From the NCBI RefSeq assembly GCF_003334815.1, contig NZ_QOWO01000003.1: a stretch of DNA of 64,000 nt; one strand, 5' to 3'. Origin of the DNA: Escherichia coli (lineage in GTDB: Bacteria; Pseudomonadota; Gammaproteobacteria; Enterobacterales; Enterobacteriaceae). This document shows positions 34,912-38,349 of this stretch, in pieces. Below the pieces are notes generated by a model. The model had not been told where the DNA came from, searched no databases, and saw only the letters and a program-made list of their open reading frames with translations. Position 1 is the stretch's first letter; the number at the start of each line of letters is the position of its first letter. Position numbers and translations under genes: made by a program.

Positions 34912-35802
34912 TTATTTCAGCGCGCCTGGTGAGAAGAAATCAACAATTGCGCCGGTTTTTTGCATATTAATATTAGCTTGTTCAATGTTGAGCTGGGCGA
35001 CAGAGACAAAAAAAGCGTCCAGCAAAGTTAGTTGTAATATTCTTGCCGAGGCATTACGACCTAATAACGGCGTTTCCGGGGCTGGTGAGCAAATAATATA
35101 ATCGGCCAGTTTCGCTATCGGTGAATGGTAGCTATGGGTTATACAAATAATCTTTGCCCCGTTCTTTTTTGCCAGTTCTACGGCCGCTTTTACATCACTG
35201 GTTCGCCCGGAATGGGTCACTACCAGCACAACATCTCCTTCCTGTAACAACGAAGCGGACATCATCATGATGTGAGCATCAGGATAGGCCTGACAGCGTA
35301 CGCCAATGCGCAAGAACTTGTGCTGTACATCAGCACAGATAGCATTTGATCCTCCGGCACCGTACAAATCCCGCTGTCTGGCCTGATAGAAAAAGCGGGC
35401 GGCACGGTGGATCTCATCAACGTTGACGATCGACTGACCTTCCATAATGGTGCGTAAAGTGATGTTAAATACCTTATTCACCACATCCTGCGGCGCTTCA
35501 TCAAAAGCCAACTCGGAAGGCAATACCTGTTCTGACTGAGAAAAATAATCTTCCAGCGCACTGCGTAAGTTACGAAAGCCGCTAAACCCCAGCAGCTTTG
35601 ATACCTTAACTATCATCGCTTCAGATACCGCCAGAGCTTCTGCGACATCTTTAATTGCGGGTGCACAACTCAGGTTACCGGGTTTGAGTAACCACTCCAC
35701 GATGCGGCTTTCATTTTCTGTCATTCCTTCCTGCTTCATTCGCAGGTAAGGCGCTAACCCTATACCGTTCGGAAGCGCTGAATCAAACTCTGACTGGCTC
35801 AT
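34912..35802 (-). CDS. rpiR: RpiR/AlsR transcriptional repressor (HTH plus SIS domain)
   Basis: ORF track 307 aa trimmed to MSQSEFDSALP (296 aa). Confidence 0.88.
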   Translation of the reverse strand: MSQSEFDSALPNGIGLAPYLRMKQEGMTENESRIVEWLLKPGNLSCAPAIKDVAEALAVSEAMIVKVSKLLGFSGFRNLRSALEDYFSQSEQVLPSELAFDEAPQDVVNKVFNITLRTIMEGQSIVNVDEIHRAARFFYQARQRDLYGAGGSNAICADVQHKFLRIGVRCQAYPDAHIMMMSASLLQEGDVVLVVTHSGRTSDVKAAVELAKKNGAKIICITHSYHSPIAKLADYIICSPAPETPLLGRNASARILQLTLLDAFFVSVAQLNIEQANINMQKTGAIVDFFSPGALK

Positions 35803-36160
35803 CACGTTCTCTTGTCCTTGAATTGAAGACGCCACTATATCACCACAGCAAGAACAGAAAAGATGCTGGCGACTTCACAAAAAAATAAAATTTATAAAGT
35901 TTATTTTATTGTGAACAATGGCGAGTGGCTTAAAATTTTATTTCATTTAATTAGTTTAAAAACATGATGTTATTTGTTTTTCTGGTTTTTTAGATGATAG
36001 ATGTTGCTGGATGGTGAGTGTCTTTAACGCTATTGCGCTGTCAGATGTAACTCTGTAAAACAGATCAGGAAGGCGTAATTCATCGATTTTGGGTGTTTTT
36101 AATTCATTAACATCACAAATGTTTTTTGATTGTGAAGTTTTGCACGGACGGGGAAGATGA

Positions 36161-36610
36161 ATGAAAAAGATTGCATTTGGCTGTGATCATGTCGGTTTCA
36201 TTTTAAAACATGAAATAGTGGCACATTTAGTTGAGCGTGGCGTTGAAGTGATTGATAAAGGAACCTGGTCGTCAGAGCGTACTGATTATCCACATTACGC
36301 CAGTCAAGTCGCACTGGCTGTTGCTGGCGGAGAGGTTGATGGCGGGATTTTGATTTGTGGTACTGGCGTCGGTATTTCGATAGCGGCGAACAAGTTTGCC
36401 GGAATTCGCGCGGTCGTCTGTAGCGAACCTTATTCCGCGCAACTTTCGCGGCAGCATAACGACACCAACGTGCTGGCTTTTGGTTCACGAGTGGTTGGCC
36501 TCGAACTGGCAAAAATGATTGTGGATGCGTGGCTGGGCGCACAGTACGAAGGCGGTCGTCATCAACAACGCGTGGAGGCGATTACGGCAATAGAGCAGCG
36601 GAGAAATTGA
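36161..36610 (+). CDS. rpiB: Ribose-5-phosphate isomerase B / allose-6-phosphate isomerase
   Basis: ORF track 149 aa MKKIAFGCDHVGFILKHEIV... Confidence 0.95.
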   Translation: MKKIAFGCDHVGFILKHEIVAHLVERGVEVIDKGTWSSERTDYPHYASQVALAVAGGEVDGGILICGTGVGISIAANKFAGIRAVVCSEPYSAQLSRQHNDTNVLAFGSRVVGLELAKMIVDAWLGAQYEGGRHQQRVEAITAIEQRRN

Positions 36611-36678
36611 GATTCATCCACTACTTGCATGGATGAGTAATGATTAATGTGGATAGAGTTTCTTTTTGAGGTTGGCTA

Positions 36679-37008
36679 ATGAAACGCTTTCCGCTATTTC
36701 TTTTATTCACCCTGCTCACGCTGTCCACCGTTCCGGCCCAGGCCGATATTATCGACGACACCATTGGCAATATTCAGCAGGCGATTAATGACGCTTATAA
36801 CCCTGACCGTGGGCGAGACTATGAAGATTCGCGCGACGACGGCTGGCAGCGTGAAGTGAGCGACGATCGGCGCAGACAATATGACGACCGCCGCCGCCAG
36901 TTTGAAGATCGCCGCAGGCAGCTGGACGATCGCCAGCGCCAGCTTGATCAGGAGCGTCGGCAACTGGAGGATGAAGAGCGGAGAATGGAAGATGAGTATG
37001 GGCGATGA
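36679..37008 (+). CDS. yjdP: Secreted protein with an R/D/E/Q-rich repeat tail, unknown function
   Basis: ORF track 109 aa; signal peptide then repeated DDRRRQ(Y/F/L)(D/E) units. Confidence 0.8.
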   Translation: MKRFPLFLLFTLLTLSTVPAQADIIDDTIGNIQQAINDAYNPDRGRDYEDSRDDGWQREVSDDRRRQYDDRRRQFEDRRRQLDDRQRQLDQERRQLEDEERRMEDEYGR

Positions 37009-37026
37009 GGTTGGGTATGGAGCAGG

Positions 37027-37125
37027 CATCGCCCCTCACCCCAATGGGGAGAGGGAGAAAACGAGCGCAATATTCAATATCGAGCACAATCGGTCCCCTC
37101 GCCCCTCTGGGGAGAGGGTTAGGGT
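37027..37125. repeat. Two copies of a GC-rich CCCCTC...GGGGAGAGGG motif in the yjdP-phnP spacer
   Basis: GCCCCTCACCCCAATGGGGAGAGGGAG and GCCCCTCTGGGGAGAGGGTTAGGGTGAGGGGG about 65 bp apart; may be a known intergenic repeat family but I cannot place it confidently. Confidence 0.4.
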
Positions 37126-37154
37126 GAGGGGGCCAGCGCGCACATTCCCTCTCA

Positions 37155-37913
37155 TCACGCCACCCCAATCTCCATCCCATCAAACCCCACCTCAAACCCT
37201 GACGGTAGTGCGTTTTCCATCAGCCACGCATCAAACTGGTGGCTGATATGGGTCAGAATCACCCGTGGCGAGCGGATAACCTGATTCAGCGCAAGCACGG
37301 TATTTAAATCACAGTGATTACGCGGTGCATCCGCGCGCGGCGGGTGACTGCAATCCATCACCATTACCTGCGGCTGATTATTGCGTAAAAATTTCAGCGT
37401 TTTTTCCGGCAAGCCTGCGGTGTCAGACAGCCACGCCACCCGGCTGTGTGCCGTTTCCAGCAGATAACCGAAGGTCAGTTTTGAGTGGTTGAGCGGCAGG
37501 GGCGTGACCTGTAACCCCTGCAAATCAAACACCACAAACGGTTCCACCGTGTGGCTGAAATCAAGCAGGCCCGGATGTTTAAACAGATCGTCGCAGCCCT
37601 GTTCATCCGGCGGGCCGTAAACCGGGATCGGATCGCCAACGCCCCAGCGCAGCGGAAACAGCCCCTGGACGTGATCCATATGATAATGCGTCAGCAAAAA
37701 CTGCTGGAACGATCCGGGCGACCAGCGATCGGCGAGATCGTGCAGCCCGGCGTCGATCAGGGTGATTGCGTCGTTAAACTTCACTACGCCGCTGCACGGT
37801 TGGCGGCGATACTGCGGCGAGCGCCGCGCTCTGGCGCAGGCCGCACACTCGCAGCCCCATGCCGGAACGCCCTGTGCGCCGCCGGTGCCGGTGAGCGTGA
37901 GGGTCAGGCTCAT
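37155..37913 (-). CDS. phnP: PhnP, phosphodiesterase (MBL fold) of the C-P lyase pathway
   Basis: ORF track 252 aa; HxHxDH motif (LTHYHMDH). Confidence 0.93.
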
Positions 37914-37914
37914 G

Positions 37915-38349
37915 TTACAGCGCCTTGGTGAAGCGGAAGTGGCTCTGCTCGTAGCCTTCGCGCAGATAGAAACGGTGCGCGTCGTGGCGCTTCACGTTGG
38001 TCGAAAGTTCGGTCATTTCGGCCCCGGCCTGGCGGGCTTCTTCTTCTGCCCACGCCAGTAACTTACTGCCGACGTTCAGACCGCGCGCCTGCGGCATTAC
38101 CACCAACTCCTGAATTTCGCCGATCCAGTTGACATGATGCAGATGAAACTGCAAATGCAGGCCGATCATGCCGACAACTTCGCCATCAAGCAGCGCCAGA
38201 TGGTAGCGCATGTTTGGGTCGCGCAGATTGGCGTTAAAACCCACGCGAAACGCGTGGTGGTCAAACTCCGCCTGTTTTAGCTCACAAATCAGCGCGTAAA
38301 CCGCGTCGGTGTCGTACTGCGTGGCCGGGCGAAGCTCACAAGCAGGCAT
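37915..38349 (-). CDS. phnO: PhnO, aminoalkylphosphonate N-acetyltransferase
   Basis: ORF track 144 aa. Confidence 0.93.

Follow-up and report, generated by a model that had tools for sequence, protein, structure and literature searches.

The yjdP–phnP locus

The window, the whole 64,000-nt (64-kb) stretch of Escherichia coli K-12 DNA that was analysed, carries yjdP, a short spacer and the convergent gene phnP. A 601-nt query around this locus is 100% identical to MG1655 and to many other strains, and adding 4277189 to a window coordinate gives the genome coordinate in NC_000913.3. There the gene order is alsR, rpiB, yjdP (b4487, 4313868–4314197), followed by convergent phnP, phnO and phnN. 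The features discussed below are as follows.

36679–37008, plus strand: yjdP (b4487) coding sequence, 109 aa, DDRRRQL repeat protein YjdP (ORF, NC_000913.3 annotation, NF041443, PF28054)
36679–36744, plus strand: predicted Sec signal peptide of YjdP, residues 1–22 MKRFPLFLLFTLLTLSTVPAQA, cleavage after AQA (sequence inspection)
36785–37195, minus strand: mechanical ORF of 136 aa, artefact
36859–37005, plus strand: seven charged heptads of YjdP, residues 61–109, with a 21-nt DNA period (Tandem Repeats Finder, heptad register, homolog indels, AlphaFold2)
36881–37246, plus strand: mechanical ORF of 121 aa, artefact
37009–37154, no strand: spacer between convergent yjdP and phnP, 146 bp, length-polymorphic among E. 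coli strains (sequence, annotation, strain alleles)
37032–37068, minus strand: type-B BoxC/TMECO remnant, blocks 3 and 1 at 37032–37055 and type-B 5' flank at 37056–37068 (reverse complement GCGCTCGTTTTCT; strain Z142-7, flank alignment)
37082–37095, plus strand: conserved 5' flank of the type-A unit, GAGCACAATCGGTC (alignment of seven K-12 type-A copies)
37096–37131, plus strand: complete three-block BoxC/PIT/TMECO element, CCCTCGCCC-CTCTG-GGGAGAGGG-TTA-GGGTGAGGGG (published consensus and catalogues)
37109–37132, plus strand: four G-tracts from blocks 2 and 3, a mirror repeat around TTA and potential G-quadruplex
37155–37913, minus strand: phnP, last gene of the phn operon, convergent with yjdP (ORF and annotation)

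The spacer has a G+C content of 61%, against 52.8% for the window as a whole, and it holds two copies of a G/C-rich motif, CCCCTCACCCCAATGGGGAGAGGG at 37032–37055 (copy 1) and CCCCTCGCCCCTCTGGGGAGAGGG at 37095–37118 (copy 2), offset by 63 nt. In 100 dinucleotide-preserving shuffles of the window the expected number of matches to the two-copy motif is zero. A sequence-only reading of this DNA had described yjdP with two G/C-rich motif copies immediately downstream, and all of these features are present where it had placed them. Both copies exist but they are not equivalent, as only copy 2 has three blocks. The description of the repeats as mirror-like is apt, since block 2 reversed (GGGAGAGGGG) matches block 3 (GGGTGAGGGG) with one mismatch. 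The G-runs on one strand are also real, the sole stretch of four G-tracts in the 64 kb being found here.

The two mechanical ORFs that overlap this segment had been suspected to be artefacts, and we agree. An NCBIfam search with both returned no family match, and neither is annotated in any genome examined (NC_000913.3 and the strains compared). The ORF at 36881–37246 (+) is out of frame with yjdP and that at 36785–37195 (-) is antisense to it, and both cross the polymorphic spacer, in which strains differ by indels of 12 to 131 nt and which is shortened or absent in ~40% of them. What speaks for real proteins is the length of the two frames, 121 and 136 codons, which follows from the repeat being G/C-rich and poor in stop codons. 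The probability that either encodes a protein is negligible.

YjdP is a predicted exported protein with a heptad-repeat tail

Over residues 1–103 YjdP matches the NCBIfam profile NF041443, ‘DDRRRQL repeat protein YjdP’, with 147.9 bits where the cut-off is 90, and Pfam PF28054 is recorded on every listed YjdP homolog. A total of 478 relatives was found, the best 120 of which come from E. coli, E. albertii, E. fergusonii, Shigella and Citrobacter. By inspection of the sequence, residues 1–22 comprise an n-region with K/R, a hydrophobic core and an AxA site, with no lipobox cysteine; the residue that follows is D. The N-terminus of the predicted mature protein, DIIDDxIGNIQQAI, is invariant in twelve diverse members of the family.

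The tail of the protein consists of seven heptads of the form [YFLM][DE][DQ][RE][RQE]R[QR]. At the DNA level Tandem Repeats Finder reports a 21-nt period with 3.5 copies (36862–36934). The heptad tail is 67% charged, pairs of opposite charge peak at i+3 and i+4, and the length differences between homologs in this region are exactly 7 or 14 residues. AlphaFold2, run with a shallow alignment, predicts a single continuous helix for residues 54–108 (block-mean pLDDT 84–97 from residue 61). The tail would on this model be a long charged helix of ~55 residues whose length varies by whole heptads. The earlier description of YjdP as a signal peptide plus a charged repeat tail therefore stands, with export a prediction, on the NF041443 match, the AxA-type signal and the heptads. 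The charged repeat it proposed, DDRRRQ(Y/F/L)(D/E), is present, but the heptad register and the 21-nt DNA period show the unit to be seven residues rather than eight.

The gene is expressed. After inhibition of LolCDE, yjdP RNA rises 9.5- and 10.6-fold by RNA-seq, and the list of genes on which it appears also includes rcsA, wca genes and cpxP (PMC5105897). YjdP is most likely an exported envelope protein that is induced by envelope stress, as judged from its sequence, the structure model and this one transcriptome.

The second motif copy is a catalogued BoxC element

Copy 2 extends past the two-block motif through TTA GGGTGAGGGG to position 37131, giving the 36-nt element CCCTCGCCCCTCTGGGGAGAGGGTTAGGGTGAGGGG at 37096–37131 in the spacer before convergent phnP. 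The element has one mismatched triplet and is intergenic, lying between the stop of yjdP (37008) and that of phnP (37155); it starts ~87 nt past the former and ends 23 nt before the latter. A regular-expression scan with the three-block consensus of the E. coli triplex motif, CCCTCNCCC-N3-6-GGGNGAGGG-N3-GGGNGAGGG (PMC4666352), matches 37096–37130 (+) and nothing else in the window.

The same sequence has been published twice. Table 1 of Holder et al. (2015; PMC4666352) lists as TMECO no. 22 the 36-nt sequence CCCTCGCCCCTCTGGGGAGAGGGTTAGGGTGAGGGG, type A with one mismatch, at 4314285–4314320, sense +. Their Supplementary Tables S2 and S8 agree with this entry, and Table S2 gives the distances to its flanking genes, 88 nt to yjdP and 23 nt to phnP (PMC4666352). 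These coordinates convert exactly to window positions 37096–37131, with sequence and strand identical. HPGQ no. 51 of group HPG1, which lies between yjdP and phnP with its midpoint at 4314309 (Kaplan et al., 2016; PMC5100583), is the same element, and its 21-nt G-block sequence, GGGAGAGGGTTAGGGTGAGGG, is identical to that in the window. The segment 37096–37131 is the catalogued BoxC/PIT/TMECO/HPGQ element; the identity is firm because both sequence and coordinates coincide with the published catalogues.

The motif was first named BoxC in the 1990s and was re-described as the PIT element in 2000 (PMC4666352). The names BoxC, PIT, TMECO and HPGQ had all been missed by the sequence-only reading. 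Two types are distinguished by the second loop, TTA in type A and CCG in type B, and pairs of A and B are often inverted; with its TTA second loop the window element is of type A. Blocks 2 and 3 also supply the G-tracts of a potential G-quadruplex, defined as four runs of at least three G with loops of 1–7 nt, at 37109–37132 (GGGGAGAGGGTTAGGGTGAGGGGG).

The sequence-only reading had asked whether the motif is a dispersed repeat family. It is, and it is far from unique to this locus: in 5,426 complete E. coli genomes the 146-nt spacer used as a query matches between 1 and 33 places per genome, with a median of 18. MG1655 carries 23 copies of the triplex motif (PMC4666352); for BoxC the older literature gives a size of 56 bp and 32 copies, against 50 bp and 22 copies by HMM (PMC2267715). 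Six other MG1655 loci from the published table were fetched and an element was confirmed at each of them. In the aligned MG1655 copies conservation reaches about a dozen bases upstream of the 36-nt core, which fits a BoxC unit of 50–56 bp. Seven K-12 type-A copies have in common a 5' flank, GC.C.ATCGGT, just upstream of the C block, and the type-B copies share a flank of the TTTTCT type. The copy between zntA and tusA is retained in 4,575 of the 5,426 genomes; such wide retention indicates that not all copies decay fast, and some may be constrained.

The first motif copy reads as the remnant of an inverted type-B element

Copy 1 fits, at 37033–37055, only the two-block hairpin part of the consensus, and the piece at 37032–37055 is absent from the TMECO catalogue (PMC4666352). 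In strain Z142-7, whose spacer is 158 nt long, an intact type-B element on the minus strand, CCCTCGCCCCATTGGGGAGAGGGCCGGGGTGAGGG, is found where K-12 has copy 1. It reads CCCCTCACCCC GG CCCTCTCCCC AAT GGGGCGAGGG and stands head-to-head with the type-A element. Relative to Z142-7, K-12 has a deletion of 12 nt that takes out the middle block and is bordered on each side by CCCC. The bases adjoining the K-12 remnant, read on the minus strand (GCGCTCGTTTTCT), are a type-B flank and match those of other type-B copies.

Copy 1 was also considered as a second direct copy of the motif; the intact minus-strand type-B element of Z142-7 and the match to the type-B flank rule this out. Compared in this way, copy 1 reads as what is left of a type-B element in the opposite orientation that lacks the 12-nt middle block, a point the sequence-only reading had missed. 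Five other loci of MG1655 carry an inverted pair of type A with type B (PMC4666352). The intact B(-)/A(+) pair is rare, with ~75 genome records at 99% identity or more.

Spacer alleles among E. coli strains

Spacer alleles of 158, 146, 95, 76, 42, 34 and 27 nt were found in a spread sample drawn from the 5,426 genomes, and yjdP and phnP are annotated as intact in every case. At least 80% of the spacer is kept (the K-12 form) in ~3,100 of the 5,426 genomes, and in ~40% of E. coli genomes it is mostly missing. Strain variation at the site is also on record: of the 56 genomes scored in Table S3 of Holder et al. (PMC4666352), 28 have TMECO 22 unchanged and 20 have it mutated, and in the other 8 it is missing.

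When the 158-nt allele is taken as the reference, each of the alleles of 146, 95, 76 and 34 nt can be explained by one deletion with exact microhomology of 3–9 nt. The ST38 allele has cleanly lost 63 nt, with CCCTC at the junction and no other mismatch, which leaves a symmetric four-block element. The O157:H7 allele has lost 82 nt between two copies of TCGCCCCTC, and the 34-nt allele has lost 124 nt with CCC at the junction. The repeated short blocks may serve as microhomologies for replication slippage or misalignment, and on that account we propose that the locus decays by small deletions.

The 27-nt allele (for example in EC958) behaves differently. Modelled as a single deletion from the long allele it leaves 13 mismatches, for which reason the 27-nt alleles are not simple deletions, and the short form is shared with E. 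albertii. There the sequence after yjdP is similar to the 27-nt allele of E. coli and lacks any BoxC block. With this one outgroup, parsimony suggests that the 27-nt form is the ancestral empty site, into which the pair was later inserted and then decayed. The course of events would begin with a ~131-nt pair entering an ancestral spacer of ~27 nt; loss of 12 nt would then have given the common K-12 form and further losses of 63, 82 and 124 nt other alleles, with yjdP and phnP kept intact throughout. Judged by these strain sequences, the element appears to be dispensable at the yjdP–phnP locus. The locus illustrates neatly how a BoxC pair may decay, with a rare allele that keeps the inverted pair intact.

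Mobility and recurrence of the motif outside E. coli

An apparent insertion into an empty site raises the question of movement. BoxC, singly or as an inverted pair, might be a miniature transposable element, non-autonomous and still mobilized by some enzyme, and the yjdP–phnP copy a transposition product rather than a passive relic. The pair is indeed a clean block of ~131 nt that is missing from the 27-nt alleles and from E. albertii, and its outer blocks form terminal inverted repeats (37032–37044 and 37119–37131, 13 nt, 92% complementary), which are the outward-facing third blocks of the B(-)/A(+) pair. The conservation of the 5' flanks within each type points in the same direction. On the other side, the filled and the empty (27-nt, E. 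albertii) sites share only GGG(G) at both junctions; these bases also belong to the element, so that no target-site duplication can be established. At zntA–tusA, the second locus compared, there is no clean empty allele and nearly all genomes have the element. The places found with the spacer query are almost all chromosomal, with 43 of 87,363 on plasmids. No transposase is associated with the element, and Holder et al. (PMC4666352) report no link to transposons, phages or plasmids.

The distribution of the motif bears on the same question. A motif scan over one genome per species gave at least 120 stretches. Enterobacteriaceae records fall outside the matches listed, among which are Verrucomicrobia, Gracilibacteria, Polaromonas, Neisseria, Bradyrhizobium, Novosphingobium, Bacteroidaceae, Desulfobacterales and others. 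Among these listed matches are very distant phyla in which the 33–36-nt motif is present many times over; a wide distribution, in more than 260 genomes, had been reported earlier. The Gracilibacteria loci are in surroundings of 24–32% G+C, with many copies and flanks that are not conserved, and the flanks are likewise not conserved in Polaromonas. In one unclassified MAG the motif sits inside a repeat of ~105 nt. Amplification in unrelated phyla, including so A/T-rich a genome, and the MAG repeat count in favour of a mobile element; taking both sides together we regard active transposition as improbable.

The recurrence of the motif across phyla is poorly explained by pure neutrality. Another possibility is that bacteria share a mechanism by which the 33–36-nt three-block unit is itself copied or selected, for instance through a putative enzyme that recognizes single-strand hairpins or triplexes or through a conserved binding protein. 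Such a mechanism would account for the look of an empty-site insertion at yjdP–phnP, for the amplification in Verrucomicrobia, Polaromonas, Neisseria and other lineages, and for the Gracilibacteria copies at 24–32% G+C without conserved flanks. We hold it to be rather unlikely.

Structure and role of the element

The sequence-only reading had suggested that the motif could form hairpins or other non-B structures, and both the folding runs and the published listings at these exact coordinates, as a triplex motif and as a G-quadruplex/hairpin, bear this out. As RNA the spacer folds to -65.5 kcal/mol on the plus strand (z = -2.4) and to -66.4 kcal/mol on the minus strand (z = -3.1), with hairpins predicted on both strands and z-scores of -2.3 to -3.1 overall. 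The type-A element as DNA folds to -14 kcal/mol. In the predicted folds, from tools that model Watson–Crick pairs only, block 1 pairs with block 3 through G-T or G-U wobble and not with block 2, where a G-A mismatch would arise.

This stability as RNA on both strands invites a role at the RNA level. The hairpins would lie in both convergent 3' untranslated ends, those of yjdP and of the phn operon, and could act as stabilizers or weak terminators, as REP elements do. Lying 87 nt from the stop of yjdP and 23 nt from that of phnP, the element is suitably placed for such a role, and many REP elements are similarly situated between convergent genes. The evidence against it is of several kinds. A scan for promoters and terminators found nothing in the spacer: no site with hairpin and T-run exists in 37009–37154 on either strand, the only two hits of the scan being inside yjdP, which rules out a classical intrinsic terminator. 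A search of 35800–38000 against Rfam 15 at permissive settings gave best scores of 14.6–16.5 bits against thresholds of 40–100, with E-values of 2.6–8.9; these matches are at chance level and a known RNA family is ruled out. About 40% of E. coli genomes do without most of the spacer and have both genes intact. An earlier study, as summarized in PMC4666352, found no promoter or terminator activity for these elements. A role in RNA stability or termination is for these reasons quite unlikely.

Structures other than the simple hairpin have been described in vitro. Type A and type B oligonucleotides form a single-strand triplex by CD and NMR (PMC4666352), the same 21-nt G-block sequence undergoes an ion-dependent transition between G-quadruplex and hairpin (PMC5100583), and a polymerase stops before the motif (PMC4666352). 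The element could accordingly be imagined as a DNA switch that flips in vivo between duplex, hairpin, triplex and G-quadruplex, for example under supercoiling between the convergent genes, and so tunes transcription, replication or recombination. Besides the in vitro triplex, transition and polymerase stop, the location of the sole four-G-tract stretch of the 64-kb window in this element can be cited for the idea. In vivo, however, DMS footprinting found the guanines as accessible as in duplex DNA and did not detect the triplex, and the genes that neighbour copies of the motif show no functional or positional pattern (PMC4666352). With the element apparently dispensable at yjdP–phnP as well, a regulatory switch is very unlikely.

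The region is made up of yjdP followed by a BoxC locus in which a complete type-A element (+) stands head-to-head with the remnant of a type-B element (-), and we consider it likely that this locus is prone to form structure, functionless here and decaying. BoxC would then be a dispersed repeat, short and prone to form structure, for which no cellular task can be demonstrated at this place, and in the gap between two gene ends it would do little harm. Its three near-identical G/C blocks would let the single strand fold into different hairpins, with block 1 paired to either block 2 or block 3, and a purine-motif intrastrand triplex or a G-quadruplex would be the alternatives seen in vitro. In view of the DMS result in vivo, a mechanism in which such structures cause the instability of the locus is only putative. 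That the element has no function is an argument from absence, drawn from the comparison of strains by sequence.

Comparison with known systems

The observation that started this analysis is confirmed and its outline is correct, and everything in it had been described before: the protein family has a name, and two papers list the repeat at its exact position, one of them having already scored the locus as variable between strains. With the repeat catalogued and YjdP already named, the finding is real but ordinary, and it carries little weight as a discovery. The small additions made here are the nature of copy 1, the series of alleles with their junctions and the likely empty site.

Within the YjdP family (NF041443/PF28054) the window protein is the K-12 founding member and shows no differences from it. 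The resemblance of its tail to charged single alpha-helices is physico-chemical only.

REP/BIME (PU) elements and BoxC are alike in being short G/C-rich dispersed intergenic palindromes that are often found between convergent genes, occur as inverted pairs and vary between strains, but their consensus sequences differ. A dedicated transposase family serves REP elements, whose influence on mRNA stability is documented. For BoxC neither a dedicated transposase partner nor an effect on mRNA stability is known (PMC4666352). BoxC and PU-BIME have been listed side by side (PMC2267715).

Compared with ERIC/IRU and the Correia elements of Neisseria, single BoxC units of 36 nt are far shorter, and no target-site duplication or link to a transposase could be established for BoxC. 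The B(-)/A(+) pair is likewise a block of ~131 nt with inverted ends that is present in some strains and absent from others. HPGQ/HPG1 (PMC5100583) denotes the same physical element as the one described here, and only the proposed structure differs, a G-quadruplex as opposed to a triplex, both of them in vitro. The full copy is no different from the BoxC/PIT/TMECO elements (PMC4666352), being intergenic and having the conserved 5' flank like all other copies, whereas the piece at 37032–37055, set against the BoxC/TMECO catalogue, has two of the three blocks and is best read as the decayed inverted type-B partner.

Fold and retention of BoxC copies

When the common BoxC form, 'type A with mismatch', is folded to minimum energy (window 37092-37135), the third G block is the partner of the C block, with a wobble pair, and the second G block is left unpaired. 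The simple hairpin drawn for such elements is therefore not the predicted ground state. The 36-nt sequence of the yjdP-phnP copy recurs identically at a second locus:

NC_000913.3 3608684-3608719, BoxC copy between zntA and tusA (locus L010).

This copy is kept in 4,575 of the 5,426 E. coli genomes, and the rate of decay therefore differs considerably among BoxC loci.

The three-block motif in distant bacteria

Among the matches listed, very distant bacteria also carry the BoxC-type three-block motif, each in numerous copies, a taxonomic range that is a lower bound. The loci from these genomes are as follows.

Loci carrying the three-block motif in distant bacteria
L015-L020, Verrucomicrobia
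L021-L034, Gracilibacteria MAG JALNXF01
L036-L061, MAG GL140_5
L097-L098, Neisseria
L099-L130, Polaromonas MAG

The surroundings of the Gracilibacteria (JALNXF01) loci have 24-32% G+C and show no flank conservation around the motif copies; those of the Polaromonas MAG likewise lack conserved flanks. In GL140_5 the motif lies inside a repeat of ~105 nt that forms two subfamilies. Among the matches listed, copies from different phyla share a short TTCT or TACT directly before the C block.

Variation in yjdP and at its junction with phnP

An IS1 insertion splits yjdP (window 36679-37008) in strains FLI21 and OZ501671 (matches H1 and H2 of the 601-nt query), where the gene is annotated twice, on either side of the IS1 transposase; because of this split, yjdP is dispensable at least in these two strains. 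YjdP lengths of 102, 109 and 123 residues differ in steps of whole heptads (alignment A2; window 36859-37005), and the length of the charged helix therefore differs between strains and species. The EC958 gene is annotated as 357 nt, compared with 330 nt.

Variation at the junction goes beyond BoxC (L139 1831-2709; L141 1827-2444; L135 1831-2321; L137 1825-2383). In Citrobacter it holds toxin-antitoxin-like pairs, either HigB-like with HTH_3 or ParE with Phd. In E. fergusonii and E. albertii a glyoxalase-family gene adjoins yjdP and the phn operon is absent; a ~60-nt remnant of the phnP 3' end appears to be kept in E. albertii.

The fused allele of ST38

In ST38 (L003 184-230) the two elements have been joined by a 63-nt deletion. 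The resulting four-block unit is symmetric, CCCCTCACCCC GG CCCTCGCCCC TCT GGGGAGAGGG TTA GGGTGAGGGGG, and either strand of it fits the three-block consensus. Holder et al. (PMC4666352) mention a 'palindrome effect', of which the fused unit is an instance.
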